This document shows positions 1,054-53,720 of a stretch of DNA of 64,000 bases, piece by piece. The position numbers and the translations under genes are program-made. Positions within the stretch are counted from its first letter, which is position 1. Every line of letters begins with the position of its first letter. The stretch is from an uncultured Planctomycetota bacterium (GTDB taxonomy: Bacteria; Planctomycetota; Phycisphaerae; SM23-33). The notes beneath the pieces are model-generated. The model did not search any database, had not been told where the DNA came from, and saw only the letters and a program-made list of their open reading frames with translations. The stretch covers positions 65,347 through 129,346 of the forward strand of contig CAITIS010000067.1 of the NCBI GenBank assembly GCA_903892515.1, given 5' to 3'.

Positions 1054-2661
1054 ATGAAGATTTTGATCGCTGATACGCTGTCCAAAGTTGGCCTGGATTA
1101 TCTCGCCGGCCAGAGTGACGTTCAGGTTGATTACAAGCCCGGCCTGACGCCTGGCGAACTGGCCCAGATCATCGGCGGCTACGACGGCATGATCCTGCGC
1201 TCGGGCATCCGCGTGACGGCCGATGTGTTGGCCAACCCCGGCAAGCTGCGCTGCATCGCCCGCGCCGGCGTCGGCGTGGACAACATTGACGTGCCGGTGG
1301 CCACCGCCAAGGGCGTCATCGTCATGAACACGCCCGGCGGCAACACGCTTTCGACGTGCGAACTGACGTGGGCGCTCATGCTGGCGATGTCGCGCAAGAT
1401 CGTCCAGGCGAACGTCTCGCTGCGCGGCGGCGCCTGGGAACGCAAGAAGTTCGAGGGCACGCAGCTGGCCGGCAAGACGCTGGGCGTGATAGGCCTGGGC
1501 AGGATCGGCAAGAGCGTGGCCAAGCGGGCGCTGGCGATGGAAATGAAAGTGCTCGCCTACGATCCGTACTTTGCCGGCTCGTGCCCGCAGGGTTCCTTCA
1601 CGCGTTTGGAGGACATGCTGGACCTCTGCCGGCAGAGCGACTACATCACCGTCCACACCCCCAAGAGCAACGAGACCAGCGGCATGATCGGCCAGGAGGA
1701 AATTGCCGCCATGAAGGACGGCGTCCGGCTGATCAACGCGGCGCGCGGCGGCATTATCGACCCCGAAGCGCTGCTCTCCGGGCTGGAATCCGGCAAGGTG
1801 GCCGGCGCCGCCATCGACGTGTGGGCAAAGGAGCCGCCCGAGTCGGAAATTGACAAGAAGCTCATCGCCCACCCCAACGTGCTGGCCCTGCCCCACCTGG
1901 GCGCCAGCACCGAAGAGGCGCAGGAGCAGGTCGCCCTCGAAGCCGCCCAGCAGCTTGTGGAGGCCTTGCACGGCGGCGATATCCGCAACGCCGTCAACGC
2001 CCCCGGTTTTGACAAGGCCTTGCCGCCCATCCTATGCCCGTACGTTGAACTGTCCCGGCGGATGGGCACGATCCTCTCGACCATAACCGCCGGCGCCATC
2101 ACGCACGTCGAGGTCGGCTACTACGGCGCGATCGCCGAACAGAATGTCTCGCCCATTACCGCCCACCTGCTGGTGGGGCTGATGACCCCGCACATGGAAG
2201 AACCGGTGAACGTCATCAACGCCCCGGTGCTGGCGCGGCAGCGCGGCATCGAGGTCGAGCAGAGCACCAGCCCGGCCATGCAGGAATTTGCCAACGTGCT
2301 GCGCGTGACGGTGCGGTCTGCCCAGATGCAGCATTCAGCCGTCGGGACGATCTTCGGCCACCGGTACCCGCGCGTCATCGGCATCGACGGCCACTCGGTG
2401 GAGATGCGGCCCGAAGGCCACATCGCCATCATCCTGAACCGCGACGTGCCCGGCGCCCTGGCCACGTACAGCCAGGTCTTTGGCCGGCACGGCATCAATA
2501 TCGCCAGCCTGACGCTGTCACGCGATGACGCTACTGGCCTGGCGCTGGTGGGAATCAATCTCGACCAGAAGCCCTCCGACAAGGTCATGGCCGAGGTCCG
2601 CCAACTGGAAGCCGTGGAGGACGCGTACTATCTCAGCCTGCCGCCGCTGCCGGCGGAATGA
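1054..2661 (+). CDS. serA: D-3-phosphoglycerate dehydrogenase (long form with C-terminal ACT domain)
   Basis: 535 aa. 2-hydroxyacid dehydrogenase NAD-binding motif GVIGLGRIG, catalytic region and C-terminal regulatory domain. Confidence 0.9.
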   Translation: MKILIADTLSKVGLDYLAGQSDVQVDYKPGLTPGELAQIIGGYDGMILRSGIRVTADVLANPGKLRCIARAGVGVDNIDVPVATAKGVIVMNTPGGNTLSTCELTWALMLAMSRKIVQANVSLRGGAWERKKFEGTQLAGKTLGVIGLGRIGKSVAKRALAMEMKVLAYDPYFAGSCPQGSFTRLEDMLDLCRQSDYITVHTPKSNETSGMIGQEEIAAMKDGVRLINAARGGIIDPEALLSGLESGKVAGAAIDVWAKEPPESEIDKKLIAHPNVLALPHLGASTEEAQEQVALEAAQQLVEALHGGDIRNAVNAPGFDKALPPILCPYVELSRRMGTILSTITAGAITHVEVGYYGAIAEQNVSPITAHLLVGLMTPHMEEPVNVINAPVLARQRGIEVEQSTSPAMQEFANVLRVTVRSAQMQHSAVGTIFGHRYPRVIGIDGHSVEMRPEGHIAIILNRDVPGALATYSQVFGRHGINIASLTLSRDDATGLALVGINLDQKPSDKVMAEVRQLEAVEDAYYLSLPPLPAE

Positions 2662-22797: not shown

Positions 22798-23016
22798 TTA
22801 GTCGGGAATCGGGAATCGGGAATCCGGAATCGGGAAAGACGGGCGGGCGATGCTGCTCGGAGGCTTGATGTTCCTGATCGACTGTTCTTCCGATCAACTG
22901 ATTAGCCGCTTCCTGGTGGCTGGGCTCGCATTGTGTTTGGCCGGAGAGCTGCTCGCGTCGTCTTGACGCCGCCGTGGCGTCCTCGTACCATCACCCGGAG
23001 TTTGCAGGAGATACTC

Positions 23017-24345
23017 ATGACAGGCCGCAAGGAATGTGGCATTGCCATTGTCGGCTGCGGCACGGTGGGCGGGGCGACCGCCAGCTACCTGGTCCAACAC
23101 GCCGACCGGCTTGCCGAACGATACAAGACCCGCCTGGTGTTGCGCCAGGTCGTCGACGTGAACTGGGACCATGCCCGCAAGCTCGGCCTGCCCGAAAGCC
23201 TGCTGACCAAGGACATCGACGCCGTCCTGCGACGCGACGATATCCAGATCGTGGCCGAACTCATCGGCGGCACGACCATCGCCAAGGCCGTGGTGGAAAA
23301 GGCCCTGTCGGCCGGCAAGAACGTCGTCACCGCCAACAAGGCCCTGCTGGCCAAACATGGCGCCGAACTGTGGGCGCTGGCCCGCAAGAACAACGTCACC
23401 ATCGCCTTTGAGGCCAGTTGCGCCGGGGCGATCCCCATCATCGCCGTGCTCACCGAAGAGCTTTCCTGCGACAACATCGAGGCCATGTACGGCATCGTCA
23501 ACGGCACGTGCAACTACATCCTCTCGGCCATGACTCAGCATGGGCAAAGCTACGCCGACGCGCTCAAGCTGGCCCAGCAGGCGGGGCTGGCCGAGGCCGA
23601 TCCGACGCTGGATGTGGCCGGCGGCGATTCAGCGCACAAGCTGGCAATCCTGGCATCTCTGGCCTTTGGCGGACGGATCGACTTTGGCCGTATCTATGTC
23701 GAGGGCATCGACAAGTTGCAGTTGCAGGACATTCAATACGGCCAAGAGCTGGGCTACGTCATCAAGCTGCTGGCCATCGCCCGGCGGCAGGAAGAAGGCC
23801 TGAGCCTGCGCGTGCATCCTTCGTTCATCTCGACGCGGCATCCGCTGGCCTGGGTCAGCGGGCCCTTCAACGCCATCAGCGTGTACGCCGAGAACTCCGG
23901 CCACACCATGTACTATGGCCGCGGCGCCGGTGGCGCCCCCACTTCGGCCGCCGTCATTGGCGACATGGCCGCCGTGGCGCTGGGCACTGCCCAGCGGAAA
24001 TTCGAGGAACTGTCGATCTTCCCCGACGTCGCGCCGCCGGCTCGTCAGGTGGACATCGGCTCGGTGTGCGGGCGGTACTATCTGCGCATGCAACTCGAAG
24101 ACAAGCCCGGCATGCTGGCCAGTATCGCCACGATCTTAGGCCGACGCGATATCAGCATCTCCTCCGTACTGCAGCGTGAGCCGGCCGACGAGTCTTCGCT
24201 GGGCGTGCCGGTTGTCATCACGACGCACCCCGCCCGCGAGGCAGACATTCACGCCGCCCTGGAGGAAGTTAACCGAATGGACTCAGTCAAGGCCCCCTGC
24301 GTCTGCATACGCATTCTGGAGGAGCACCCGGAACGGACCGTATAG
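23017..24345 (+). CDS. hom: homoserine dehydrogenase (with C-terminal ACT domain)
   Basis: Start at MTGRKECGIAIVGCGTVGG (ATG 23017). NAD-binding domain, catalytic domain and ACT domain. Confidence 0.9.
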   Translation: MTGRKECGIAIVGCGTVGGATASYLVQHADRLAERYKTRLVLRQVVDVNWDHARKLGLPESLLTKDIDAVLRRDDIQIVAELIGGTTIAKAVVEKALSAGKNVVTANKALLAKHGAELWALARKNNVTIAFEASCAGAIPIIAVLTEELSCDNIEAMYGIVNGTCNYILSAMTQHGQSYADALKLAQQAGLAEADPTLDVAGGDSAHKLAILASLAFGGRIDFGRIYVEGIDKLQLQDIQYGQELGYVIKLLAIARRQEEGLSLRVHPSFISTRHPLAWVSGPFNAISVYAENSGHTMYYGRGAGGAPTSAAVIGDMAAVALGTAQRKFEELSIFPDVAPPARQVDIGSVCGRYYLRMQLEDKPGMLASIATILGRRDISISSVLQREPADESSLGVPVVITTHPAREADIHAALEEVNRMDSVKAPCVCIRILEEHPERTV

Positions 24346-24363
24346 GTTCCGGCGGAGAGCACG

Positions 24364-25551
24364 ATGAAATACGCTGTAATTATCCCCGATGGCGCCGCTG
24401 ATGTGCCGCTAGCCGAACTGGGCAACCGCACGCCGCTCCAGGCGGCCCGCAAGCCCAACATGGACTGGATTGCCGCCCATGGCCGATGCGGCACGGTACG
24501 CACCGTTCCCCGCAACATGGAGTGCGGCTCGGACGTGGCGATCCTGTCCGTACTGGGCTACGACCCACGCGAGTTCTACACTGGCAGGGCTCCGCTGGAA
24601 GCGGCCGCTCGCGGCGTGCCGGTGGGCGAGAACGAATGGGTCTTCCGCTGCAACTTCGTGACGATTATCGACGGCGTTATGGAAGATCACTCGGCCGGGC
24701 ACATCAGCTCGAAGGAGTCGGCCGCCCTGATCGCCGAGCTGAATCGGCTGGTGGCGCAGGAGCGGCTGCACTTCTTCCCGGGCGTATCGTATCGGCACCT
24801 CATGACGCTCAAGGGCGAGGTCAACGTCAAGACCACGCCGCCGCACGACATTCTCGGCCAGAAGGTCGCTGACCACATGCCCACCGGCCCCGGCAGCGAG
24901 ATACTTTCGACGCTGTTTGCCCGCAGCCAGGAAATCTTCGCCAATCACGAGGTCAACCAGGTGCGGCGCGACCTGGGCGAAAACCCGGCCACGCACATCT
25001 GGCTGTGGGGCCAGGGAAAGATGCCAAACCTGCCGAATTTTCAGGAAAAGTATGGCATGCGCGGCGTGGCGATCACGGCGGTGGATCTGGTTCGCGGCAT
25101 TGCAAAACTGATCGGCTGGGACTGCGTCGAAGTGGCCGGCGCCACCGGCTTTCTTGACACCGACTTTGCGGGCAAGGGCCAGGCCGCCATCGGCGCGCTG
25201 GCCAATTACGATGTGGTCTGCGTTCACGTTGAGGCCTCCGACGAGTGCGGCCACCAGGCCGACGCCAAGGGCAAGGTCCAGGCCCTTGAGCAGATCGACA
25301 AGTTCATCGTCGGGCCCCTGCTCAAGCACTTCCAAGCCGGACAGGACGAGTGGCGCATCCTCGTGCTGCCCGATCATCCCACGCCCTGTACGAAGCGGAC
25401 GCACACCTCCGAGCCCGTGCCCTTCGCCATGGCCGGCAGCGGCCTGTCAGCGGTGGTTGAGCATCCCTTCACCGAGCAGGCGGCCGTGGAGTCGGACGTC
25501 CACGTGGCCAAGGGCAGCGACCTGATGGAGTTCTTCCTCCGCGGATCGTAA
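24364..25551 (+). CDS. cofactor-independent phosphoglycerate mutase family protein (ApgM-like); probable non-canonical homoserine kinase
   Basis: 395 aa. Metalloenzyme-superfamily N-terminus (IPDGAAD) and PhosphMutase-like core. Sits between hom and lysC, 18 bp after hom. A divergent paralog lies at 31047..32264. Confidence 0.7.
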   Translation: MKYAVIIPDGAADVPLAELGNRTPLQAARKPNMDWIAAHGRCGTVRTVPRNMECGSDVAILSVLGYDPREFYTGRAPLEAAARGVPVGENEWVFRCNFVTIIDGVMEDHSAGHISSKESAALIAELNRLVAQERLHFFPGVSYRHLMTLKGEVNVKTTPPHDILGQKVADHMPTGPGSEILSTLFARSQEIFANHEVNQVRRDLGENPATHIWLWGQGKMPNLPNFQEKYGMRGVAITAVDLVRGIAKLIGWDCVEVAGATGFLDTDFAGKGQAAIGALANYDVVCVHVEASDECGHQADAKGKVQALEQIDKFIVGPLLKHFQAGQDEWRILVLPDHPTPCTKRTHTSEPVPFAMAGSGLSAVVEHPFTEQAAVESDVHVAKGSDLMEFFLRGS

Positions 25552-25706
25552 CGGGATATCTGGGATTCGGCCTTTGGATTCGGAACTGTCTCCGCCGCTT
25601 TGGCGGCCTGAAAACCATTGGACTTTTCCCGCGAGTTCGCTAGTCTTTCAGCCCTAATCAACTGGTTGCGAGGCCCGGGCTCGCGTCAGCAAGGAGCGGC
25701 GTTGCG

Positions 25707-26957
25707 ATGAGTATCGTGGTAATGAAATTCGGCGGGTCCAGTGTGGCCGACGCGGACAAGATTCGCGCCTGTTCCGCCCGGGCCATCGAAGCACGCAAAG
25801 CCGGCCACAAGGTCGTCATGGTCGTATCGGCCATGGGCGACACGACGGACGACCTCGTCGCACTGGCCAAGCAAATTACGTCCACCCCGTCCAAGCGCGA
25901 GTACGATCAATTGCTCGCCACCGGTGAGCAGGTGACGATTTCCCTGGTCGCGATGGCGATGGAGGCCATGGGCCAGCCCGCCATCAGTTTCACGGCCGGT
26001 CAGATCGGCATGGTCACCGACGACAAGCACACCAAGGCCCGCATCAAGCGCATCGACGTGCAGAAAGTCCTGCGCGAACTCAAGTCCGGCAAGATCGTCA
26101 TCGTGGCCGGCTTCCAGGGCGTGACCGAGGACGGCGCCGTCACCACGCTGGGACGCGGCGGCTCGAATGTGACGCTGGTGGCCATAGCCGCGGCCCTCAA
26201 GGCCGATATGTGCGAGAACTACACCGACGTCGATGGCATCTTCACGGCCGACCCGCGGCTGGTGCCCAACGCCCGCAAAATCGACCAGGTCAGCTACGAT
26301 GAGATGCTCGAACTGGCCTCGCTGGGCGCCAACGTGCTGCACAACCGGGCGGTAGAGTTTGCCAAGAAGTACAATGTGCCGATTCATGTTCGCAGCAGTT
26401 TGAACCATTCCAAAGGAACGATGATCGTGGCGGAATCAGAGGAAATGGAGCGTATCGTCGTCAGCGGGGCCGCGTTGAAGAAGCAGTTGGCCCGCGTGAG
26501 CCTGCGTAACGTCCCGGACCGGCCGGGCATGGCGGCCAGGATTTTTCACACGATCGGGGCGGCCGACATCGTCGTGGATGACATCATCCAGACCGAGACG
26601 ACGAACAAGCTAGCGGCCGTTTCGTTCACGGTGGACATGGGCGACATCACCGACGTCAAGGCCGTATGCGAGAAGCTGTGCAGCCAGCACGCCGGCATGA
26701 CGGTTGAATTCAAGACCGACCTGGCCAAGGTCAGCGTGGTGGGCGTGGGCATGCGCGTCCACACGGGCGTGGCCCAGCGGATGTTCGCCGCCCTGGCCGG
26801 CGCTGGCATCAACATCCACAACATCACCACCAGCGAGATCAAGATCTCCTGCATCATCGACCAGGTCCAAGGCCCCATAGCGCTGCGCCTGATCCACGAC
26901 GCCTTCGACCTGGGCAAGACTCCTGGGAAAGCCAAGGCCAAGAAAGGTAGGAAGTAG
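25707..26957 (+). CDS. lysC: aspartate kinase (with tandem ACT domains)
   Basis: MSIVVMKFGGSSVAD... amino-acid-kinase fold plus two ACT repeats. 416 aa. Confidence 0.9.
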   Translation: MSIVVMKFGGSSVADADKIRACSARAIEARKAGHKVVMVVSAMGDTTDDLVALAKQITSTPSKREYDQLLATGEQVTISLVAMAMEAMGQPAISFTAGQIGMVTDDKHTKARIKRIDVQKVLRELKSGKIVIVAGFQGVTEDGAVTTLGRGGSNVTLVAIAAALKADMCENYTDVDGIFTADPRLVPNARKIDQVSYDEMLELASLGANVLHNRAVEFAKKYNVPIHVRSSLNHSKGTMIVAESEEMERIVVSGAALKKQLARVSLRNVPDRPGMAARIFHTIGAADIVVDDIIQTETTNKLAAVSFTVDMGDITDVKAVCEKLCSQHAGMTVEFKTDLAKVSVVGVGMRVHTGVAQRMFAALAGAGINIHNITTSEIKISCIIDQVQGPIALRLIHDAFDLGKTPGKAKAKKGRK

Positions 26958-27006: not shown

Positions 27007-27504
27007 TTGCGGGACTACGTCGAAAAGCACCCGGAGACAGTGCAGGACCTGGAGTTGGCGAGCGAGGATCGGCTCTGGGAAGGTCTTGAACTGCTGGCTT
27101 CTGGACAAACAGCAGGCGGCATGTACTTGCTGGGTTACGTTGCCGAGATGGTATTGAAGAACGCGTGCTTTCTGTTTGAAGGAGCTCGTCCCTCCGACCC
27201 AATATCTGCTCGGCTCGGACCCATGCGGGCTTTCGGCAAGTCTCATTTTCCGACAATCGACAGGGAGAATTACCACAGCCTTGTCTTCTGGTATCATGCA
27301 CTGCTTCATAAACGAAACTTGGCAGGACGCTCGCTGCCAAGTCCCACGGCGCGCCAGTTGGGGCGCAGGGTCGCCAGCATTCACAGCATGTGGGTCGTAG
27401 CCATGCGATATTATCCGGCTGCACTTCTTCTCCCAAGTCACGCAGCGACGATCTACAATGATGTGATCTGGCTGTACGATCATCGTCTCCAACTGAGGAT
27501 GTAA
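27007..27504 (+). CDS. hypothetical protein in lower-GC cassette (possible HEPN-like; carries RAFGKSH, an Rx5H motif)
   Basis: 165 aa. No recognised family. Alpha-helical character. R-x5-H motif. TTG start is tentative. Local GC is visibly lower than flanks. Confidence 0.45.
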   Translation: MRDYVEKHPETVQDLELASEDRLWEGLELLASGQTAGGMYLLGYVAEMVLKNACFLFEGARPSDPISARLGPMRAFGKSHFPTIDRENYHSLVFWYHALLHKRNLAGRSLPSPTARQLGRRVASIHSMWVVAMRYYPAALLLPSHAATIYNDVIWLYDHRLQLRM

Positions 27505-27505
27505 C

Positions 27506-27826
27506 ATGCCCATCAAGCATCGCCTGCAACGTACTTTGCCTTCCACCGCAGCAGAACTTACTCGGCAGCTCATGCACGAATGGACAGAGCCCAGCAGCGC
27601 GGGGCAGCCGCTAATCGTGCTTGAAGGTGAGAGGGGGCAGCCCCAGCATGTCTACGTCATCTGGGACGAGTGGAAAGGCCTCGACCAGAGAGAGAGGTCT
27701 GAGATCATCATGGACGTTGTTGAGCAACTGAGCGGCCCACAGGGTATGCCCGACTTGTCCCTAGTGACAGTGGCGATGGGATTGACTATCGAAGAAGCGA
27801 AGCGGATGGGCATTGATGTGTCCTAG
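27506..27826 (+). CDS. hypothetical protein, tightly coupled partner of 27007..27504
   Basis: 106 aa. ATG lies 1 nt after the upstream stop. No recognised family. Confidence 0.45.
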   Translation: MPIKHRLQRTLPSTAAELTRQLMHEWTEPSSAGQPLIVLEGERGQPQHVYVIWDEWKGLDQRERSEIIMDVVEQLSGPQGMPDLSLVTVAMGLTIEEAKRMGIDVS

Positions 27827-31046: not shown

Positions 31047-32264
31047 ATGTACGAAGACTATTACGGCAATTTGATTACCTCCCTGGCGATGGCCAACGAC
31101 AAGAAGATCGTCCTGCTGGTGATGGACGGCCTGGGCGACGCCCCCAACGCCACCGGCAAGACGCCACTGCAAGCCGCCATCAAGCCCAACCTCGACGCCC
31201 TGGCGGGACAATCGGCCTGCGGGCTGCTCGTGCCAGTCGCTACAGCCGTCACGCCAGGCTCGGGCCCGGGCCACCTGGGCCTGTTTGGCTACGACCCGCT
31301 GATATACCAGGTCGGGCGCGGCGTGCTCAGCGCGCTGGGCGTGGAATTCCCGCTGGAAGACCGCGACGTGGCCGCCCGGTTGAACTTCTGCACCATCGAC
31401 AAGAGCGGCAACATCGCCGACCGCCGCGCTGGCCGGATTCCCGACGAGGAGAACCGCCGCGTACTGGAGAAGATTCGCAAGGGCTTGAAGACTCCTGCGG
31501 GCGTAGAGGTCTTCTTTACGACTGAGGCTGAACACCGCGCCGTGCTGGTGCTGCGTGAGAACAATCTCGACGACAACATCGGCGACACCGACCCGCAGCA
31601 CACGGGCGTCCCGCCGCTGAAGGCCAACCGCGCCCCGTACGACAAGAGCCCCACGGCCGCTATCGCCGCCAATATCATCGAGCAGGTGCAGAAGATGCTG
31701 GCCGATGAGCCCAAGGCCAACATGATCGTCGCCCGCGGCTTTGCCAAGCACCCGGCCTGGCCGAAGTTCCCCGACCGCTACAAGGTCAAGCCGGCCGCCG
31801 TGGCGGGCTACCCGATGTATCGCGGCGTGGCCAAGTTGGTGGGCATTCCCGTGGTGGCCAAGCCCACGACCGCCCAGGATGTCTGCGCCGAAGCCGCCAA
31901 GGCAATGGCCGAGCACAGCTTCGTCTTTGCCCATTTCAAGTACACCGACAAGACCGGCGAAGACGGCGACTATGACGGCAAGGTCAAGCGGATCGAGGAG
32001 ATGGACAAGGCCCTGCCGACGCTGCTGGCGGCCAAGCCCGACGTGCTGATTATCACCGGCGATCACTCCACGCCGTGCGTGTTGAAGAGCCACTCCTGGC
32101 ATCCCGTGCCGGTGCTGATGAAGGCCCCGTGGCTGCGTGGCGGGCAAGTGGCGAAGTTCGACGAGGTCAACTGCCGCGGCGGCGAGATCGGCACCATCCC
32201 CAGCCGTGAACTGCTGCCTCTAGCCATGGCCCACGCCGGCAAGCTGGAGAAGTTCGGCGCGTAG
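31047..32264 (+). CDS. apgM: 2,3-bisphosphoglycerate-independent phosphoglycerate mutase, archaeal-type (ApgM family)
   Basis: LLVMDGLGD ... GHLGLFGYDP ... ITGDHSTP motifs of the ApgM/metalloenzyme family. Start tentative (MYEDYYGNL); upstream ATGs overlap a palindromic repeat. Confidence 0.7.
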   Translation: MYEDYYGNLITSLAMANDKKIVLLVMDGLGDAPNATGKTPLQAAIKPNLDALAGQSACGLLVPVATAVTPGSGPGHLGLFGYDPLIYQVGRGVLSALGVEFPLEDRDVAARLNFCTIDKSGNIADRRAGRIPDEENRRVLEKIRKGLKTPAGVEVFFTTEAEHRAVLVLRENNLDDNIGDTDPQHTGVPPLKANRAPYDKSPTAAIAANIIEQVQKMLADEPKANMIVARGFAKHPAWPKFPDRYKVKPAAVAGYPMYRGVAKLVGIPVVAKPTTAQDVCAEAAKAMAEHSFVFAHFKYTDKTGEDGDYDGKVKRIEEMDKALPTLLAAKPDVLIITGDHSTPCVLKSHSWHPVPVLMKAPWLRGGQVAKFDEVNCRGGEIGTIPSRELLPLAMAHAGKLEKFGA

Positions 32265-32967: not shown

Positions 32968-34179
32968 CTACTTCGTGTACTCGCCCTTGTTCCGCGGGCC
33001 CGTCAGGCCTTCCCACTTCGGGTCGAGCCTGGCCACGCCGTACCACGCGCGGGACATGTACAGGGCGTCCAGCACCGAGCAGGCCACCATGGCCTCGGCC
33101 ACCGGGTAGATGCGCGGGCAGATGCTGATGTCGCGGCGGGTGACGGCGGCCAGTTTCTTGGCCTGCATCGTCTTCAAGTCCACGGTGTCCTGCTGCTTGG
33201 AGATCGTCGGCGTGGCCTTGACGTACATGCGTATGATCAGGTCTTCGCCGTTGCTCATGCCGCCCGAGAACCCGCCACTGTGGTTGGTCTGGAAGCGGAC
33301 CTTGCCGTCTTCCAGTACGGGCTGGTCGTTCCATTCGCTGCCCAGCGTGCGAGCGGCCGCGGCGCCAGAGCCGAACTCCAGCCCGGTCATCGCCCCGATG
33401 CTGCACAGGCCGTGCGCGATCGTGGCCTTGAGCTTGTCAAAGACCGGCTCGCCCAGGGCCGCCGGCACACCTCGGGCGATGATCTCGATGGTCCCGCCGG
33501 CCGTGTCGCCCGCATCGCGGACTTTCAGCAAGTCAGCGATCATGACCTTGGCCTGGTCAAGATCGCAGCAGTTCAGGTCGTTCTTGCGATAGTTGGCCTT
33601 GAGTTCCTCGAAGGTCATCGTGCCTTCGGCCACGCTCCTGCCCTTGATGCCGTGACTCTCAATGACGTGGGCGAGGATCTCGATGTTCTCGCGGGCGAGA
33701 ATCTGCTTAGCCACAGCGCCGCCGGCCACCCGGCCCACCGTCTCACGTCCACTGGCCCGGCCAGCGCCGCACCAGTCGCCGTGCTCGCCATACTTGTACA
33801 GGAAGTTCAGTTCGGCATGGCCGGGGCGAACGACATCTTTCACGTCGCGGTACTGCTGGACGTGAATGTCCTGCGTATCGACGTTGCGGACGAGCAGCCC
33901 GACGGGCGCGCCGGTCGTGATGCCTTCCTGCAAGCCGGCGACGACCTCGACGATGTCGGTTTCCTTGCGCGGGCTGTCGAGCTTGCTCTGGCCGGGGCGG
34001 CGTTTGAACAGTTCGTCCTGGATTCTCTTGACGTCGAGCTTGATGCCCGGCGGCACGCCGTTGACGATGCAAAAGAGCGAGCCGCCCCAGTTGCCCGGGT
34101 CCTCGGCCGTCGCGTGCCAGCCGTAGCTCTCGCCGCACGTAGTGATCTGGAAAATCCGTCCAAACGTGTTGCCCAGCAT
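32968..34179 (-). CDS. aroC: chorismate synthase
   Basis: MLGNTFGRIFQITTCGESYG ... full chorismate synthase layout (403 aa). Confidence 0.9.
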   Translation of the reverse strand: MLGNTFGRIFQITTCGESYGWHATAEDPGNWGGSLFCIVNGVPPGIKLDVKRIQDELFKRRPGQSKLDSPRKETDIVEVVAGLQEGITTGAPVGLLVRNVDTQDIHVQQYRDVKDVVRPGHAELNFLYKYGEHGDWCGAGRASGRETVGRVAGGAVAKQILARENIEILAHVIESHGIKGRSVAEGTMTFEELKANYRKNDLNCCDLDQAKVMIADLLKVRDAGDTAGGTIEIIARGVPAALGEPVFDKLKATIAHGLCSIGAMTGLEFGSGAAAARTLGSEWNDQPVLEDGKVRFQTNHSGGFSGGMSNGEDLIIRMYVKATPTISKQQDTVDLKTMQAKKLAAVTRRDISICPRIYPVAEAMVACSVLDALYMSRAWYGVARLDPKWEGLTGPRNKGEYTK

Positions 34180-34792: not shown

Positions 34793-36088
34793 CTAAATCT
34801 TCTGCATCTCGCAGCCCAGCAGCGTCATCTGCTCGATGAAGTTGGGAAAGGTCTTCTTGACACACTCGATGTCGCTGATGTGCGTCTGGCCACTGGCGAC
34901 CATGCCGGCCAGGCTCAGCGTCATTACCATGCGATGATCGGCCCGGCTGTTGAGGTGCGCCCCGTGCAGCCGGCTGCCACGAATCACCAGACCATCGGGC
35001 CGCTCCTGCACGTCGGCGCCCATTGCCCGCAGGGCCTTGTGCATCTCGGCGATGCGGTCGCACTCCTTCTGCCGGCAGATGGCGGCGTCGTACAGTTCGG
35101 TCGTCCCTTCGGCGCAGGCCCCGACGACGGCCAGCAGCATGAACTGATCGACGAAGTCGTTGCAGTCGATCCGCATGCCCTTGAGTTGGCTGGTGCGGGC
35201 GATCACGCCATCAGGCAGGATCTCCAGGTTCGCGCCCATCTGCCGCAGGACATCCAGAACCAGCCGGTCGCCCTGCACGTCGCGGTAGTCCACGCCCTGC
35301 ACGTGCACCTCGCTGTCGGGGCACAGCAGACCCGCCACGATCGGGTACATGGCCGCCGACCAGTCGCCGGGTATGCGGGCGTCAAAGCCCTTCCAGCGGC
35401 TTCCGCCGGCCAACCGGTATCGAGCGAAGTCCTCGTTCTCCAACTTGATGCCGCACTGATCCAGCCAGTACAGCGTCACGCCGATCCAGGGCTTTTCGCC
35501 CGGATTGTGTACGATCAGTTCCGTCGGCGCCTCGGCCATGCTGGCGGCGATGAGCATCGCGCTGACTGGCTGGGAATCGGCCCCGTCCAGTTCCGCCCGC
35601 CCGCCCTTGAGCCGGCCTCGAACGACTACCGGCGCATGACCGTCATTCTTGGTCGAATACGCGCTGGCCCCCAGCGCGTTCATCGCGTCGAGCAGCGCCT
35701 GGCAGGGACGAATATGCCGGATGGACTCGTCGCCCGTCAGGATGGTCGTGCCGTCGCACAGCCCGGCCAAGGCCGTAAAGAAGCGAAAGATGATGCCGCT
35801 GTTGCCGCAGTTGATCACGTCATCGGGAATCCGCAGCTCCCCGGCGGTGCCCGTGATCTGCCAGCAATCGTGAGCTTCGGGCTCGATCCTGGCCCCGAAC
35901 ATCTCCAGGGCCTCGGTCCCACGCATCCAATCGGCCGAGACGGCTGGGGACTCAATGCGGCTGGTCCCCTCCGCCAGCGCAGCCATAATGAGCGCTCTAA
36001 ACGAGTGAGACTTGTTGGGGGGAATCTTGATAGCCCCCCGCAGCGACCGCGATGACTGCACAGATACGTTCATTTTGTCCTCAGCCAA
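34793..36088 (-). CDS. aroA: 3-phosphoshikimate 1-carboxyvinyltransferase (EPSP synthase)
   Basis: GAIKIPPNKSHSFRALIMAALAEG ... LVIRG motifs. 431 aa (start may be the internal MNVSV). Confidence 0.9.
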   Translation of the reverse strand: MAEDKMNVSVQSSRSLRGAIKIPPNKSHSFRALIMAALAEGTSRIESPAVSADWMRGTEALEMFGARIEPEAHDCWQITGTAGELRIPDDVINCGNSGIIFRFFTALAGLCDGTTILTGDESIRHIRPCQALLDAMNALGASAYSTKNDGHAPVVVRGRLKGGRAELDGADSQPVSAMLIAASMAEAPTELIVHNPGEKPWIGVTLYWLDQCGIKLENEDFARYRLAGGSRWKGFDARIPGDWSAAMYPIVAGLLCPDSEVHVQGVDYRDVQGDRLVLDVLRQMGANLEILPDGVIARTSQLKGMRIDCNDFVDQFMLLAVVGACAEGTTELYDAAICRQKECDRIAEMHKALRAMGADVQERPDGLVIRGSRLHGAHLNSRADHRMVMTLSLAGMVASGQTHISDIECVKKTFPNFIEQMTLLGCEMQKI

Positions 36089-40011: not shown

Positions 40012-40962
40012 TCATTGCGGCCTCTCCCGCAACTTCACGCCCATCGCCCAGGCCCCAAGCACGCCGACGCAGGCCGGGAGCAGCAGCACGATCAAGGCGT
40101 TAGTCAGGTACGCCGCCAGCACCATCGACGGCGTGAACCCGAACGCCCCGAAGACCCCCACCGCCACCGTCTCGCGCACGCCGAAGCCGCCGGGCGTAGC
40201 CGGGATGAGGTTATTGAGCATGACCACCGGCGTCAGGGCTGAGGCCATCAGCAGCCCGATGGGCCCGAAGGCGCGCAGGCAGAGATAGACGGTCAGCACA
40301 CTGAGAACTTCGGCCAGGATCGAAGTGGCCAGGAACACGCCAAATGGCCACCATGGCAGCGTGATTTCCGCCAGTTGCTTGGCCTTGCCTGGCAGCAGGC
40401 GGGTAAACAAGCCCCACAGTCGAGCAGGCCGATAGTGCAGCAGCAGCGGAAAAGCCAGGGCCAGACACAGCAGCACAGGACAGGCGACCAGAGCGGCCGG
40501 TGGGATCTGCGAGCCGCCGAGTTTCACGTCGGCCGTCACGAGATACACCAGCCCCAGCAGGCACAGCAGCAGCACGCCAGCCAGGTCGAAGAGCCGTTCG
40601 ACCACGACCCACCCCGCCAGTTTGAGCCGCACGCCCTTGGGCACGAACATCGGCCTGACGACTTCCCCGCCGCGAAACGGCGTGGCCAGCCCCACGCCCA
40701 AGCCCGCCAGCATGGAAACCCACGCCTGCCGCCAGAGGATGGGCTGCCCCTCCAGCCCGGTCATCCAGCGCCACCGCGCCACCCGCACCGTCCAGTACGC
40801 CAGAGCCAATACGACGGCTCCCAGGAGATGCCCTGCGCTGGCGTGGCGAACCTCGGCGGCCAAGCTGGACCACTGCTGATGGCTCAGCAAATACGCCAAC
40901 AGCCCCGCGGCCAGTGCCAGCGAGAGCCCCTGCAAAATCCACGCTTTCAGACGAGACGGCAT
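40012..40962 (-). CDS. flippase-like / UPF0104 (lysyl-PG-synthase TM-region) family membrane protein
   Basis: ~316 aa with ~8 hydrophobic helices. Start at MPSRLKAW. Stop overlaps the YdjC start (ATGA). Same operon as the GT2 gene. Confidence 0.55.
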   Translation of the reverse strand: MPSRLKAWILQGLSLALAAGLLAYLLSHQQWSSLAAEVRHASAGHLLGAVVLALAYWTVRVARWRWMTGLEGQPILWRQAWVSMLAGLGVGLATPFRGGEVVRPMFVPKGVRLKLAGWVVVERLFDLAGVLLLCLLGLVYLVTADVKLGGSQIPPAALVACPVLLCLALAFPLLLHYRPARLWGLFTRLLPGKAKQLAEITLPWWPFGVFLATSILAEVLSVLTVYLCLRAFGPIGLLMASALTPVVMLNNLIPATPGGFGVRETVAVGVFGAFGFTPSMVLAAYLTNALIVLLLPACVGVLGAWAMGVKLRERPQ

Positions 40963-41034
40963 GAGGGGACAGCGTAGTCGATTTCGCCCCCTGGGGAAAG
41001 CGACTGATGCGCTGCATGACCGGGTTGTGCCTAA

Positions 41035-41292
41035 TACTACAACGCTACGAATGGAGCTTTGATAATTCGCCTGGCTTGGAGGCCCGGAGGGCCGAAACGA
41101 TTGTAGCCGTGGGCGTAAGCCCACGGAGACCGCCCCAGTGGCAAAGAGCCCCGGCGGGGCGACAGAGTCGTTGGACAAGCCAACGGTGTCGCCCCTTCGG
41201 GGCTCAGGCACAAGCCCATGCATACCGGGGGCTTACGCCCCCGGCTACAGTAGTACCGACCCTTCGGGTCTGAATTTCGTAGCGTTGTAGTA
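41035..41292. repeat. 258-bp structured element bounded by 17-bp perfect inverted repeats (TACTACAACGCTACGAA), MITE-like or structured RNA
   Basis: IR-L 41035..41051, IR-R 41276..41292. Nested internal inverted repeats (GGCGTAAGCCC/GGGCTTACGCC, GGGGCGAC/GTCGCCCC, CCCTTCGGG). Confidence 0.55.
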
Positions 41293-42710: not shown

Positions 42711-43649
42711 TCAGAACAACTCCCGCTTCAAGGCCCGGATGATAATCGGAGCGAACACGGTCAGCACGACTGAAAGCAGCACCAGCAGGCTGGGCACGAG
42801 AATCCGCACCGAAGCGGCCGCTGCCAGTTTCTCCGCCCGCACAGACCGCTGCAACCGCATCAGGTTGGCCTGTTCTTTGAGCACAATCGACAGCGGCGTA
42901 CCGAGCCCTTCGGCCTGGATGATCGCCGCCACGATCGAGCGCAGCGATTCCAGCGGAATTCTATCGGACAGGTTGTGCAGTGCCATCGCCCGCGTGGTGC
43001 CCAGTTCCACCTCGGCCAGGACCGTGTTCAATTCCACGTTGAACGGGTGGCTGGGGTCTTCTCGGATCACCGTGCGAATCGCCTCGGTGAAGGTTGCGCC
43101 GGCCCCCATTGCCAATGCGATCAGGTCCAGCGTGTACGGCACGCGCCGGGCGATGTCATGCACCCGCCGCTTGGCCATGTTAAAGAGGTGGTACAGGTAA
43201 AAGCCGAAGCCGCCGACCAAACCAATGACGAGGGCCGCCGGGCTGAACTGCTGCTGCAGGGCCATGTTACCGACTGTCAGCAGGCCCGCTGAACCCACGC
43301 TGACGAGCAAGGCCATGGCAATGGCCTCATCCGTGGTGTAGAAGTTCGGGCTGCCGGCCGCAATGAGCGTCCGCCGAAGTCTTTCTCGCAAATTCGGGGC
43401 CGGAAGCTGCCGGGACAATGCCAGCAGCAGCCACAGCATGGGCGCGAAGAATGAGTTTTCAAAGAGCGTGCGCCGGTCGGCATGGCCAGTGGCAAGCGCC
43501 ATCTGCCGCTCGGGCGTGACCTCGACCCGGCCGTGCACGCCGAAGACCGCCAGCACGAACGCCACCACGAAGGCGAAGATCGCCCCCGCCAGGCCCCACT
43601 GCAGCAGGCTCATCTCGGCCAACGGGATGTTCAGTTCGATGTTATACAT
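42711..43649 (-). CDS. Tad pilus inner-membrane platform protein TadC-like (T2SS-F family)
   Basis: Polytopic. T2SSF-domain-like. Adjacent to and overlapping the TadB-like gene. Confidence 0.65.
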   Translation of the reverse strand: MYNIELNIPLAEMSLLQWGLAGAIFAFVVAFVLAVFGVHGRVEVTPERQMALATGHADRRTLFENSFFAPMLWLLLALSRQLPAPNLRERLRRTLIAAGSPNFYTTDEAIAMALLVSVGSAGLLTVGNMALQQQFSPAALVIGLVGGFGFYLYHLFNMAKRRVHDIARRVPYTLDLIALAMGAGATFTEAIRTVIREDPSHPFNVELNTVLAEVELGTTRAMALHNLSDRIPLESLRSIVAAIIQAEGLGTPLSIVLKEQANLMRLQRSVRAEKLAAAASVRILVPSLLVLLSVVLTVFAPIIIRALKRELF

Positions 43650-44507
43650 CGATGGACACAATCTGGCGGATCCACAGGAACCCGGCAACGTTGAGCAGAA
43701 TAATGAAAAACAGGATGACCTTTCCGGTGTCCTCGGTCACCAGCAGGCTCACGCCGTACGGGTCGATCATGTACAAAATGGCCAGAATCACCGCCGGCAT
43801 GGCGCCCATCCACCTGGCGGCCGTGCGACCCGGGGCGGTCAGCGTCTCGATCTGCTTCTCCAACCGATGAATCTCGCGGATGCTCTCGGCGATCCGTTCC
43901 AGCGTTTCGCCCAGGTCACCGCCGCGCTCGCGGTGCGTTAATAGAGCGGAAAACAGCAGCCGGTAGTTGCTCGACCCAATCCGGGAGGCCGCGTTCTGCA
44001 TGGCCTGTTCGAGCGAAATTCCGTGCTCGTACTCCCGCAGCAGGTGGGTGAATTCCTCGCTGATGGGCTTGGAGGCGTTGTGGGCCAACAGTTCCATCGC
44101 CTGCACCAGGTTGAGCCCGGCCCGCACGCCGCTGGACAACGTCTGGATGCCGTCAACAAGCTGATCCTCCAGCCGTGAAAGCCGCCGGCGTTTGAGCATC
44201 TTGATCGTCAGCACCGGCACGGCCAGCCCCAGCAAGGCCCCGCCCACCGCCACGAGCGCGTGCTGAATCAGCGTGTAGCCGATGGTAGCGAATAACGCCA
44301 TGCACAGGCCCGTCAGGACCGTCACCGTTCGCGGACTGATCTCCAGCAGCAGCGAGCCGCGTAGGACGGATTCGTACCCGCTCTCCTGACGCAGCACGAA
44401 ACGCCGAAACGGCGCCCAGCCGCCCAGAACAACCAGGAATACGGCCGTGAAGAGCACCGCTCCCATCGCGATCTGCCACAGCCGTTCGTCAGCCACCACC
44501 GCCATCA
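43642..44507 (-). CDS. Tad pilus inner-membrane platform protein TadB-like (T2SS-F family)
   Basis: Start set at [10 protein letters not shown] (first 148 codons of the long ORF overlap cpaF out of frame). Polytopic T2SSF-like. Confidence 0.65.
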
Positions 44508-46412
44508 CTGAAAGACCTCCAGCGCCAGCAGATCCTTTGCCATGAGTTCCTGCGTGAATTCCGGAATGTAGCCGGTGTGCTGGAGCCGCAGTTCGCCCTT
44601 CCACGCGCTGTCGAAGATATTGCCGCTGCCGAAGGACTCGTGTGCCGGCCGGAGGACGAAGATGTCCTCCGTGAGAATCTGCGAGGTTTCCTGATCCAGC
44701 CCCACCACCTCCGAAATATGCGTAATCCGCCGCCGGCCATCGGGGAATCTGGCTACCTGCACCACCAGGTGGATGGCCGCCACGATCTGCTCGCGAATAG
44801 CCCGCACCGGCATCTCGACGGCGGTCAGAACCATGGTTTCCAGCCGCATCATCGTGTCGGTCGGCGTGTTGGCGTGGATCGTGGTCAGCGAACCATCGTG
44901 GCCGGTGTTCATGGCCTGGAGCATGTCCAGAGCCTCGGGGCCGCGGCATTCGCCGACAATCAGCCGGTCCGGCCGCATACGCAGCGCGTTGCGGACCAGG
45001 TCGCGGATCGTGTAGGCGCCCCGGCCCTCGATGTTGGGCGGCCTGGTCTCCAGCCGGACGACGTGCTCCTGCGGCAGTTGCAGTTCGGCCGAATCTTCAA
45101 TGGTGACGATGCGTTCTTCGGCCCCGATGAAGGCAGCCAGCACGTTTAGCGTCGTGGTCTTGCCGCTGCCCGTGCCGCCGGAGATCAGGATGTTCTTCCG
45201 GCCTTGCACGCAGGCCTTGAGAAAGTTGGCCGTCGCCTCCGTCAGCGTGCTCCGCTCGACGAGGTCGTCGATGGTGAAGGGAATGCGGGCGAATTTTCGG
45301 ATCGTCAGGGTTGGCCCCGACAGGCTCAGCGGGTTGATGATAGCGTTGACGCGCGAGCCGTCGCTCAATCGGGCGTCCACCAGCGGCGTGGAGCGGTCGA
45401 TGCGCCTGCCCACGGGCGTGATGATTCGCTCGATAATGCTCAGGACAACTTCGTCGGAGAAGAAACTGCGGTCGGTGTTGGACACCTGGCCGTCCTTCTC
45501 AATATAAATGTGGTCCTTGCCCACGACCATGATCTCGTTGACGTGGGGCATCTCCAACAGATCCTGCAACGGGCCGTAGCCAAAGACGACGTCCTCGATT
45601 TCCTTGCTGACCATCCGCGTGGCCACGTAGCGGCGCAGCTCGTCAGTCACCTTGTCATCGCACCGCCGCAGCACGTTGTCGAAGTCCGCCTCGATCATGG
45701 CGGCGTCTTCCCGAATGGACTGCGGCGTCAGCCGAACCGGGAAGTAGCTGATGATGTCGCCCACAAGCCGGCTGAGCGTCTTTTCCAGTTCGCCCTGCAG
45801 GATGTCGGAATCCTCGAAACCGTAGCTGTACATCATCCGGCCTGTAGAACGCATGGTCAGTTCGGTAATGACGGAGCGCCAGAGGAATTCACGCAGCAGG
45901 TGAGCGAGCATCTCCTCGTCGAGTTCAGGCAACCGCTGCTGGATGATCTCGGCCAGGTGCCGCTTGATCAAGGCCGCGTAGTCCGCGTCGGCCTTGGCCA
46001 CTTGCGAGGCCACGCGCAAGTTCAGCCGTTCGAGCAATTGGGCGTGCAGCGACTGTTCGAATTCCACCAGCCGGCGGCGTGGCGTGGTCGTTTCGGCCGA
46101 GGCGCGTCCGCGCCGGGCCGATGGCTCCATCATGAACAGCGAGAACTCGCCCAGGCGAATCTCGTCACCGTAAGAGATCTTCGCACGCGTGTGCGGCGGA
46201 ACGTCGCGGTTGGCAACCGTCGTGCCGTTTAAGCCCAGGCTCTCGACGAAAAAGCTGCCGCTGTCCTTGAACAGCCGGGCGTGCTGACGCGAGACAAACG
46301 GGCTCTTGAGCGCAACCGTATTGCGCTCATCCCGGCCGATAGTGACTTCGCCATCGCCGACCTGGACGACCTTGCGCTCATCGGACAGGTGATTGTAGAC
46401 CCAGATTTCCAA
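44505..46412 (-). CDS. cpaF: Tad secretion ATPase CpaF/TadA with N-terminal FHA domain
   Basis: FHA motifs ([21 protein letters not shown]...GLNGTTVAN) then VirB11/CpaF core (Walker [10 protein letters not shown], Asp box, Walker B, His box). Confidence 0.85.
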
Positions 46413-46428
46413 ACGCCTCTCCCGCTGC

Positions 46429-47262
46429 CTATTGTCCCGGCTTTCCCGGTGTCACCGGCGCGTTGCTCAGCAGCGCCTCGACCTCCGGGTTGAGCTTGTT
46501 GTCGAACTGGGCCTGGTTGTCGGTGGGGTTCCTCACCGCCAGCCAAAGCTTGCCCTCGATCCGCGGCATCAGATCGGCCAGTTGCACGGCCACTTCAGGT
46601 TTGAGTTCCACGGTGAACGACCGGTACACGCGGGCGGCGCTGTCGCGGGCCGAGGAAACGCCTGGCCGGTCGTCGGGTGATTCGCTGCGCCCACCGATCG
46701 CGATGACGCGCAGATTCTGAATCAGCACATACGCCTTGGCCGGCCTGCCCTTGATGCTGAACAAGCCGATCAGATCGGCGCGGTCACCCACCTGAAGCAA
46801 GCCGCCGGGCGTGTAGCTCGGGTCCACCGGCAGCGAGACGCCCAGCATGCCCTTGCGGATGTTGATTGACGGGCTCTCGCGGTCGGAGCCGACAAGCTGA
46901 ACGAAGCGAATGTACTCGTCGCGGCTGACGGCGCGGTTGACGTGTACGTTTGGCCCCAACACAAGCTGTCGATCGGCCTTGGTCAGCACCTTGCCCTGGC
47001 TGTTGTATTCGTTGCGGTGGATGTCCACCTCGGCAAAGTCGTTGGGCGTGATTTCTTCGCCGCTCTTTAAGTCGCGAGTCCACTTGAGCACCGTGACGGT
47101 GTCGCCGGTCAATTGCCGCTCGCGGGCCGAGTCGTAGGCAATGAACAATCCCACGGCCACCAAGCCGGCGATCACCGCCACGAGCAGCAGCTTCTTGTTG
47201 ACCTGGCCGTCGCCGCCGGTGGGCGTCCCAGGGGCAATCCTCTTGGCAGTCGTTTCAGCCAT
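46429..47262 (-). CDS. cpaB: Flp pilus assembly protein CpaB/RcpC (SAF + periplasmic domain)
   Basis: N-terminal TM segment LLLVAVIAGLVAVGLF. SAF-like region and conserved CpaB C-terminal domain. Start at MAETTAKR. Confidence 0.75.
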   Translation of the reverse strand: MAETTAKRIAPGTPTGGDGQVNKKLLLVAVIAGLVAVGLFIAYDSARERQLTGDTVTVLKWTRDLKSGEEITPNDFAEVDIHRNEYNSQGKVLTKADRQLVLGPNVHVNRAVSRDEYIRFVQLVGSDRESPSINIRKGMLGVSLPVDPSYTPGGLLQVGDRADLIGLFSIKGRPAKAYVLIQNLRVIAIGGRSESPDDRPGVSSARDSAARVYRSFTVELKPEVAVQLADLMPRIEGKLWLAVRNPTDNQAQFDNKLNPEVEALLSNAPVTPGKPGQ

Positions 47263-47399
47263 CGTCTTCCTCGACCTCGTTTCGCCGCGTGACACGGGCG
47301 TCTCGCCCGTGCGTGTCACGGCCGTCTCGGCCGTGTTTCCTTCAGAACCATGGGCGAGACGCCCATGACACACATGGCCGAGACGGCCATGTCACATTC

Positions 47400-53712: not shown

Positions 53713-53720
53713 TCAATTCC

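Follow-up and report, generated by a model that had tools for sequence, protein, structure and literature searches.

Which enzyme phosphorylates homoserine when the gene that follows the homoserine dehydrogenase gene belongs to the phosphoglycerate mutase family? The question is raised by a 64-kb stretch of DNA from an uncultured, Phycisphaerae-like member of the Planctomycetota (hereafter the window), for which a sequence-only reading had described a phosphoglycerate-mutase-family gene, 24364..25551, lying 18 bp after hom and ahead of lysC, in the position of homoserine kinase. The list of open reading frames (ORFs) of the window confirms this layout, with hom, the ApgM-like gene, and lysC all on the + strand and in that order. 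Judged from the encoded proteins, the three genes form a same-strand threonine/aspartate-pathway cluster in which the 24364 product is very probably the HomK (ThrB2/TIGR02535) enzyme. The features discussed below are as follows.

22802..22836, + strand: tandem heptamer (TCGGGAA)x5 (Tandem Repeats Finder: period 7, 5.0 copies, 92% matches)
22963..22991, + strand: TTGACG-17-TACCAT, a weak match to a sigma-70-like promoter, ending 26 nt ahead of the hom ATG (consensus scan)
23017..24345, + strand: hom, homoserine dehydrogenase, 442 aa, with a C-terminal ACT domain; NF004976 491 bits (cutoff 205)
24364..25551, + strand: predicted homK (ThrB2, TIGR02535), 395 aa; TIGR02535 535.3 bits (cutoff 446.3)
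25552..25706, + strand: homK-lysC spacer, 155 bp, with AAGGAG 10 nt ahead of the lysC ATG
25707..26957, + strand: lysC, monofunctional aspartate kinase, 416 aa; NF005155 535.7 bits (cutoff 346)
31047..32264, + strand: divergent ApgM paralog, probable glycolytic iPGM; NF003160 539.5 bits (cutoff 468)

Organization of the locus

The hom ORF is listed as 22933/23017..24345, and the ATG at 23017, which has AGGAG 6 nt ahead of it, is the start used in public gene calls. The hom product carries the Pfam domains NAD_binding_3, Homoserine_dh, and ACT. Its stop codon TAG (24343-24345) is followed 18 bp further on by the homK ATG at 24364, with GGAG 6 nt 5' of it. The lysC product, the aspartate kinase that opens the aspartate pathway, has the Pfam domains AA_kinase, ACT, and ACT_9, and two ACT domains in all. 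The same gene order is found on five other public contigs that encode an identical HomK protein. The homK gene is probably co-transcribed with hom; for lysC, the 155-bp gap ahead of it makes co-transcription less certain.

The heptamer repeat falls within the 219 bp that separate the rseP stop from the start of hom. The sigma-70 consensus scan returned two sites against 1.0 expected from shuffled sequences, which is the chance level, and the promoter match is therefore not significant evidence. No regulatory RNA was found around the operon by Rfam, either at the gathering threshold or at E<=1. In addition, neither a riboswitch nor a canonical terminator was found in the homK-lysC spacer, and its folding is not unusual (z-score -0.39 against shuffled sequence).

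Family assignment of the 24364 product

Besides passing TIGR02535, the curated model named "proposed homoserine kinase", the 24364 product scores 532.7 bits on NF003242 (cutoff 426), a model that bears the name "cofactor-independent phosphoglycerate mutase". It also passes TIGR00306 apgM (501.9 bits; cutoff 320), a broad model at subfamily level that covers both functions, mutase and HomK. It falls below the cutoff of NF003104, the archaeal iPGM equivalog (300.6 vs 489). Pfam finds only the Metalloenzyme and PhosphMutase domains in it, without GHMP domains, and neither the NCBIfam profiles nor tblastn gave a match of the protein to ThrB/TIGR00191.

The conflicting names of the models are settled by two reference proteins. 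BT2402 scores 603.9 bits on TIGR02535 and 581 bits on NF003242, whereas the solved iPGM 2zkt scores 327.4 and 329 bits, below both cutoffs, and 622 bits on NF003104. NF003242 is thus misnamed rather than informative, since BT2402 passes its cutoff and a solved iPGM fails it. The BT2402 sequence used here was recovered from a gut metagenome by scanning for the published forward cloning primer, and aligns end to end with the window HomK at 39% identity (401 columns, E=2e-97). Representative P0169, considered as the BT2402 cluster for its matching numbering, was rejected as it is archaeal, with a Bathyarchaeota/Methanosarcina neighbourhood. The best match among the searched genomes is 66% identical to the window HomK.

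Taken from its sequence, the 24364 gene is an ordinary member, predicted to be catalytically intact, of the already described HomK family. The HomK idea itself is not new, since the family has a curated model under which the gene is named accordingly. Public sources call the window HomK a phosphoglycerate mutase, so the assignment likely corrects a misannotation.

Active site residues, structure, and phylogeny

The key residues of the window HomK are D9, S56 (nucleophile), E290 (specificity), D293, H297, D337, H338, and H347. In the alignment with BT2402, D9, S56, D337, and H338 correspond to D9, S56, D346, and H347, while D293, H297, and H347 correspond to D302, H306, and H356. The catalytic Ser56 and all six metal ligands are thus present. 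Moreover, E290 aligns with E299, the published specificity residue of BT2402. Glutamate occupies this position in 124 of the 146 family representatives and at 70/70 genome loci, and the window paralog, like 2zkt and 3kd8/3idd, has lysine there. The signature DDSHEDEHDHH is common to about 115 of the 146 representatives and to all genome loci, and every catalytic and metal-binding residue is kept both in the window HomK and in 70/70 genome orthologs.

Six positions tell HomK from iPGM, and the window HomK is in the HomK state at all six. Y143, W213, W215, and E294 are further family-specific residues, which add discriminating positions to the single published specificity residue; F354 is an additional one that is less strictly conserved. 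The window HomK has Tyr143, Trp215, and Glu290; the corresponding residues of 2zkt, 3idd, and the paralog are His, Arg, and Lys, respectively.

The AlphaFold2 model of the window HomK has a mean pLDDT of 95.4. Its best PDB match is 2zkt (the PH0037 iPGM), with a TM of 0.84-0.87, and no kinase fold was matched. A neighbor-joining (NJ) tree of 51 sequences splits 2zkt, 3idd, and the paralog clade from BT2402, the window HomK, and the representatives with bootstraps of 100/100. All the sequence-level tests applied here thus support the alternative homoserine kinase family, and not the mutases, for the 24364 gene: the TIGR02535 score of 535 bits, the 39% identity to BT2402, Glu290, this split, and the place of the gene right after hom on the same strand.

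The second ApgM-type gene

The sequence-only reading had regarded the divergent paralog at 31047..32264 as the likelier true iPGM, and its NF003160 score, its place in the tree, and the lysine (Lys298) that it has at the position of the HomK specificity residue agree with that. It groups with the solved iPGMs 2zkt and 3idd (100/100) and carries the C-terminal EKFGA as in PH0037 (2zkt). On TIGR02535, it scores only 171 bits, and it is 26-29% identical to HomK. The ORF starts are listed as 30984/30999/31047, of which 31047 is favored since the relatives measure 404-405 aa. The metal-ligand histidine of DxxGH is replaced by Glu305 (HFKYTDKTGED), a replacement invariant in 120/120 relatives, and glutamate can bind metal. 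The paralog is a probable real iPGM, predicted to be able to cover glycolysis. The comparison of both paralogs that had been proposed as a check places the 24364 gene with BT2402 and the paralog with the solved iPGMs.

Absence of thrB from the window and conservation of the neighborhood

The statement that no canonical thrB lies in the window holds: neither a GHMP kinase (thrB) nor thrC was found by a Pfam scan of its 43 ORFs of at least 100 aa, and six-frame tblastn of the 64 kb with E. coli ThrB and ThrC as queries returned nothing. At another locus (L036), a ThrB-like tblastn match near HomK proved to be IspE, not ThrB. In published genomes, thrB and thrB2 are complementary: 278 of 300 thrB2 genomes are without thrB, and 22 carry both (PMC9026213).

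Synteny was read from 80 genome loci located with a 20-sequence alignment, a 42-sequence alignment being too diverse. In these related genomes, homK is usually beside hom, lysC, or thrC, and the linkage recurs across phyla. Of 69 loci, 24 have hom immediately upstream of homK and a further 15 have it within 3.5 kb; of 68 loci, 26 have lysC immediately downstream and a further 8 have it within 3.5 kb. A thrC gene on the same strand occurs at 13 loci, where it mostly separates hom from homK, and at another 3 loci thrC immediately follows homK. Among the sampled Planctomycetota and Omnitrophota genomes, HomK prevails and the hom-homK-lysC order recurs. Assigning HomK to the 24364 gene would close, at the level of sequence, the apparent gap in threonine synthesis of the genome from which the window comes.

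Alternative functions

A sister clade of HomK-like proteins lacks the Ser nucleophile and the metal ligands, yet its genes still stand immediately ahead of lysC. One of the three such dead proteins checked, P0125 (locus L095), is also directly downstream of hom, with a 1-bp gap to lysC. Since these relatives occupy the same slot, operon position alone is no proof of activity, and they are what favors reading the protein as redundant, or as a companion of aspartate kinase or Hom that is mostly non-catalytic (e.g., a homoserine sensor), with a normal thrB elsewhere; the 22 genomes carrying both genes (PMC9026213) speak for the redundancy. Nevertheless, such a role is very unlikely for the window protein, as the retention of all catalytic and metal residues here and in 70/70 orthologs is not expected under a purely structural role.

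Glu290 selects an amino group, not homoserine specifically, and a phospho-amino acid may also serve as the donor. On these grounds, the 24364 product could phosphorylate another hydroxy-amino acid (giving L-threonine O-3-phosphate for cobalamin, or phosphoserine) or be a promiscuous amino-acid phosphotransferase, and GapMind 2026 speculates that cobD-adjacent homologs bearing the glutamate make threonine phosphate. However, the mutase model gives the cobD-linked homologs a better score than does TIGR02535, which the 24364 gene passes, and its neighbors are hom and lysC, not cobD, with no cobalamin genes anywhere in the 64-kb window. This possibility is accordingly judged improbable.

That the gene encodes a genuine cofactor-independent phosphoglycerate mutase with an incidental position between hom and lysC is hardly credible, for although it passes NF003242 and TIGR00306, has the iPGM fold with all catalytic residues, and has close homologs that public sources name phosphoglycerate mutase, BT2402 passes NF003242 too and 2zkt does not, Glu290, Y143, and W215 replace Lys, His, and Arg, the tree splits it from the solved iPGMs, an iPGM-type paralog is already present 5.5 kb away, and the hom/lysC/thrC linkage recurs across phyla.

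Proposed reaction and phosphate donor

The window HomK is almost certainly a phosphotransferase and not an ATP-dependent kinase. As it has no ATP-binding domain, HomK would replace the GHMP-type ThrB by different chemistry. Its predicted fold is that of the two-metal alkaline-phosphatase superfamily, as in archaeal-type iPGM, and would have been re-tuned for amino-acid binding. In a ping-pong reaction, a phosphoryl donor would phosphorylate Ser56 at the bimetal center, where D9, D337, and H338 would hold one metal and D293, H297, and H347 the other. L-homoserine supplied by the upstream Hom would then bind with its alpha-amino group against Glu290, and its gamma-hydroxyl would take the phosphate from phospho-Ser56. 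The product, O-phosphohomoserine, would pass to a threonine synthase encoded elsewhere.

With regard to the donor, residues that are positive in iPGM are neutral or acidic in the window HomK (H to Y143, R to W215, K to E290, and K/A/V to E294). This loss argues against phosphoglycerate, whereas an amino-acid phosphate, for example phosphoserine, would be compatible with it; the Tyr143, Trp215, Glu290, and Glu294 swaps fit an amino acid as both donor and acceptor. Clustering of the neighborhoods for donor clues (glycerate kinase, serB/serC, a PEP enzyme) found none of these and gave only hom, lysC, thrC, cimA, valS, gpsA, plsY, a CstA-like transporter, and a nuclease. A tentative and rather doubtful extension is that HomK is an ATP-independent phosphotransferase with a phospho-amino-acid donor, most plausibly O-phosphoserine, and that its scaffold perhaps has a further function, non-catalytic and linked to aspartate kinase, the latter suggested by the dead relatives kept directly upstream of lysC. 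If phosphoserine were the donor, a single reaction would finish serine synthesis without SerB and also provide activated homoserine for making threonine. The donor and the in vitro mechanism are questions for the whole family and not specific to the hom-homK-lysC locus.

Comparison with known systems

The sequence-only reading stated that, in several bacteria, a member of this family next to threonine genes had been identified genetically as the missing homoserine kinase, and the literature agrees (10.1101/2024.10.14.618325; PMC7311316; PMC9026213).

Bacteroides thetaiotaomicron BT2402: Similar to the window HomK, BT2402 scores above the TIGR02535 cutoff, has the same Ser, metal ligands, and Glu, and is encoded among threonine-pathway genes, on the strand that also carries the gene for homoserine dehydrogenase. 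The Bacteroides order is thrA (a fused AK-HD), homK, and thrC, whereas in the window hom and lysC, both monofunctional, flank homK, and thrC lies outside the window. Rescue of E. coli thrB::kan was obtained with both BT2402 and DET_RS08350, and the specificity residue was proposed to be E299; the rescue by BT2402 was weak, at OD600 +0.14 after 47 h (10.1101/2024.10.14.618325), and an earlier attempt failed (PMC7311316). BT2402 is backed by genetics and complementation, while the Planctomycetota homK is known from sequence.

Dehalococcoides mccartyi DET_RS08350: This diverged HomK is about 39% identical to BT2402, and its genome also encodes a more distant iPGM-type paralog (10.1101/2024.10.14.618325), a two-paralog situation shared with the window. 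TIGRFAMs class it as TIGR00306, whereas the window HomK passes TIGR02535; the two are compared here by description.

ApgM (PH0037 = 2zkt; Thermoplasma 3kd8/3idd): The fold, the Ser nucleophile, and the bimetal site are shared with the window HomK at 30-32% identity. In contrast, ApgM has Lys, His, and Arg in place of Glu290, Tyr143, and Trp215, and the (E/D)KFG(A/S) C-terminal tail of the mutases is absent from HomK. ApgM catalyzes an intramolecular mutase reaction, whereas HomK would carry out an intermolecular transfer to homoserine.

ThrB (E. coli b0003, TIGR00191): ThrB and HomK would share the pathway step and the product O-phosphohomoserine, and take a comparable place in threonine clusters. 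On the other hand, ThrB is a GHMP ATP-dependent kinase, and the fold of HomK is unrelated and without the ATP-binding GHMP motifs, a case of non-orthologous displacement.

ThrH (Pseudomonas aeruginosa): ThrH has a HAD fold with an Asp nucleophile and is unrelated to HomK; no HAD protein is encoded within the 64-kb window. As a phosphoserine:homoserine phosphotransferase that forms O-phosphohomoserine without ATP (10.1101/2024.10.14.618325), it nevertheless provides the precedent, and its phosphoserine is the donor suggested for HomK.

Locus organization

The ApgM-like gene between hom and lysC very probably encodes an ordinary homoserine phosphotransferase of the HomK (ThrB2, TIGR02535) family with intact catalytic residues, judging from its sequence. 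NCBIfam and Pfam assign the relevant genes as follows.

Genes of the hom-lysC locus and the second ApgM-like gene
23017..24345, + strand: hom, homoserine dehydrogenase with ACT domain (442 aa)
24364..25551, + strand: ApgM-like middle gene, Metalloenzyme/PhosphMutase (395 aa)
25707..26957, + strand: lysC, aspartate kinase with two ACT domains (416 aa)
31047..32264, + strand: second ApgM-like gene (paralog), Metalloenzyme/PhosphMutase

The order hom, ApgM-like gene, lysC, with the middle gene placed 18 bp after hom, was correctly recognized in the sequence-only reading; the ORF list of the window matches what public gene calling gives for five further contigs that encode the identical protein. 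The hom stop and the middle gene ATG are 18 bp apart, with GGAG 6 nt 5' of the ATG, and because of this short spacer and ribosome-binding site the two genes are likely co-transcribed. The gap between the middle gene and lysC is 155 bp long and contains a separate AAGGAG. For the paralog, the start at 31047 is favoured because its relatives are 404-405 aa long. Neither a riboswitch nor a terminator nor an attenuator-like fold turned up in searches of the hom-homK-lysC region. The spacer 5' of hom has a perfect-looking tandem heptamer, (TCGGGAA)x5, at 22802..22836, close behind the stop codon of rseP.

Canonical thrB is missing from the window, as had been proposed: neither a Pfam scan of the 43 ORFs of at least 100 aa nor six-frame tblastn with E. 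coli ThrB found a GHMP kinase, and this absence refers to the 64-kb stretch. The same Pfam scan and six-frame tblastn with E. coli ThrC found no threonine synthase there.

Family identity of the middle gene

With TIGR02535, titled "proposed homoserine kinase" (cutoff 446.3), the window protein reaches 535.3 bits, and with NF003242, which is named "cofactor-independent phosphoglycerate mutase" at NCBI, it reaches 532.7 bits. This conflict of names is settled by the literature on BT2402/ThrB2/HomK, which also provides the published genetic evidence assumed earlier for a mutase-family homoserine kinase. TIGR02535 was put forward as a ThrB replacement, and Bacteroides thetaiotaomicron mutants of BT2402 require threonine (PMC7311316). 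ThrB2 and thrB show complementary occurrence in gut genomes (PMC9026213). GapMind 2026 reports rescue of E. coli thrB::kan by BT2402 and by DET_RS08350, a diverged HomK; it renamed the family HomK and proposed E299 as the discriminating residue, being Glu in HomK and Lys in mutases (10.1101/2024.10.14.618325). BT2402 passes NF003242 at 581 bits, whereas the solved iPGM 2zkt (PH0037) fails both NF003242 (329 bits) and TIGR02535 and matches NF003104 instead. NF003242 is thus a model of the HomK family that bears the name of a mutase, and this equivalog appears to spread a wrong product name across the whole family.

BT2402 was retrieved from a human-gut metagenome contig via the forward cloning primer of GapMind 2026 (10.1101/2024.10.14.618325). 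The recovered ORF (L092, 5284..6507; 407 aa) has both ends as the two primers require and sits between thrA and thrC. Its product and the window protein share 39% identity along their entire length (E=2e-97), with D9, S56, and E290 matching D9, S56, and E299 of BT2402. At the metal sites, D293/H297, D337/H338, and H347 match D302/H306, D346/H347, and H356. D9, S56, E299, D346, and H347 of the recovered protein agree with the published residues, and the second metal site was given as D274, H278, and H325 (10.1101/2024.10.14.618325). The recovered protein has N274, E278, and V325 at these positions, and by homology its second-site ligands would be D302, H306, and H356.

Discrimination from phosphoglycerate mutases

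Comparison of 36 HomK-type sequences with three independent iPGM lineages gave six discriminating positions, and the window protein has the HomK state at all six.

Discriminating positions (window protein residue: iPGM state)
Y143: H
W213: V/L
W215: R
E290: K
E294: K/A/V
F354: V/L/I

Y143, W213, W215, E290, and E294 are invariant in 70/70 genome-derived orthologs. Lys stands at the E290 position in PH0037, in the iPGM of Thermoplasma, and in the paralog of the window. In a neighbour-joining tree built from 51 sequences, 2zkt, 3idd (the Thermoplasma iPGM), and the paralog clade are split from BT2402, the window protein, and the family representatives with bootstrap 100/100. The TIGR02535 score, the identity to BT2402, E290, and this split uphold the earlier view of the middle gene as HomK-type and not a mutase, and the phylogeny places each ApgM-like protein with its characterised counterparts.

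The paralog is the predicted glycolytic iPGM, and several features support this role, which had already been suggested. It passes NF003160 (539.5 bits; cutoff 468) and reaches only 171 bits on TIGR02535, has the mutase Lys at the HomK specificity position and a C-terminal EKFGA as in PH0037, and groups with the solved mutases. In its DxxGH metal motif (HFKYTDKTGED), Glu (E305, codon about 31959..31961) replaces His. This variant is invariant in 120/120 close relatives and is therefore a conserved NF003160 subfamily trait, not an error.

Synteny in related genomes

An exhaustive representative search gave 6,869 homologs. Going by homolog names, the organism belongs to uncultured Phycisphaerae. 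The genome scan gave 80 loci, chiefly from Planctomycetota (Phycisphaerae, Pirellulales, Brocadiales) and Omnitrophota, plus a few methanogens; because even its top match reaches just 66% identity, the source species lies outside the scanned collection. Of the 69 loci with sufficient upstream DNA, 24 have hom directly upstream and another 15 have it no more than 3.5 kb away; of the 68 with sufficient downstream DNA, 26 have lysC directly downstream and another 8 have it no more than 3.5 kb away. Among the 59 loci with both flanks, 13 show the tight order hom-homK-lysC. Thirteen loci have a same-strand short-form thrC (TIGR00260, 326 bits), which mostly sits between hom and homK, and long-form thrC is directly 3' of homK in 3 others. 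No ThrB was seen near any of the 80 HomK loci. The sole ThrB candidate near a HomK locus is IspE.

Unusual HomK relatives

A HomK-like clade without catalytic machinery, 42-45% identical to the window protein, includes the representatives P0125 (L095, 6001..7197), P0134 (L100, 6001..7194), and P0148 (L102, 6001..7245). P0125 carries S56D, D293H, H297L, D337N, and H338Q, and proteins of its type retain the scaffold motifs WxW and HVE. Their genes are still directly 5' of lysC, with a 1-18 bp gap in L095 and L102. In L095 the upstream gene is hom, and L102 shares its downstream nuclease with the window. Some 16-20 of the 146 representatives of the family belong to this type, which may consist of pseudoenzymes whose role is non-catalytic. 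Among other reasons, the HomK assignment of the middle gene is held short of certainty because these dead relatives occupy the same slot, so position alone is no proof of activity.

In P0144, P0147, P0162, P0166, P0182, P0185, P0192, and P0199 (locus L098, 6001..9306), an N-terminal HomK-like domain whose catalytic signature is intact is fused to a C-terminal extension of about 600-700 aa with no Pfam match. Around the L098 gene lie glnA (type III), genes for amidotransferases, and a two-component system rather than threonine genes.

Other features of the window

Further genes of amino acid metabolism from the gene calls
1054..2661: serA, phosphoglycerate dehydrogenase with ACT domain
32968..34179, - strand: aroC
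34793..36088, - strand: aroA

Gene calls place a HicA-type toxin gene pair between aroC and aroA. Right 3' of lysC, a lower-GC stretch (27007..27826) holds two small neighbouring ORFs (165 aa and 106 aa) with no Pfam match. It varies among same-species contigs, with other genes in L001 and the 106-aa gene retained in L002, and is a small variable island, with the two ORFs possibly a toxin-antitoxin or defence pair. Two Acido-Lenti-1 RNA matches, 41225..41271 (+) and 41080..41126 (-), score 42.9 and 41.2 bits (gathering score 37). Separated by about 100 bp and oppositely oriented, they are located at the 5' end and just upstream of an LPG_synthase_TM gene (40012..41223, -). A large Tad/Flp-type pilus cluster spans 42711..56999 (-), with FHA-domain proteins and a Ser/Thr protein kinase (51052..53712) interspersed. 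Its members include RcpC/CpaB, a T2SS-F protein, TadE, and a pair of T2SS-E ATPases, of which one carries an FHA domain at its N terminus.

Proposed mechanism and comparison with known systems

The window protein has the fold, an intact Ser nucleophile and bimetal site, the specificity Glu, and the pathway linkage. By analogy with the alkaline-phosphatase/iPGM mechanism and GapMind 2026, a donor would phosphorylate Ser56, and the phospho-Ser56 intermediate would hand its phosphate to the gamma-hydroxyl of homoserine, while E290 would hold the alpha-amino group. Phosphoglycerate as donor is disfavoured by glycerate-kinase co-occurrence, and phosphoserine was suggested (10.1101/2024.10.14.618325). 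The swaps from iPGM His/Arg/Lys to Tyr/Trp/Glu in HomK may point the same way.

The HomK family is already known, with a curated model for years and complementation evidence now, and its occurrence here is not a discovery. To our knowledge, no HomK structure has been solved. The confident AlphaFold2 model of the window protein (pLDDT 95.4) is closest to PH0037 among solved structures. Bacterial iPGM, phosphopentomutase, and alkaline phosphatase come next, and its structure matches include no kinase fold. The window protein and the PH0037 iPGM are thus alike in fold (TM 0.84-0.87), but PH0037 has Lys where the window protein has E290.
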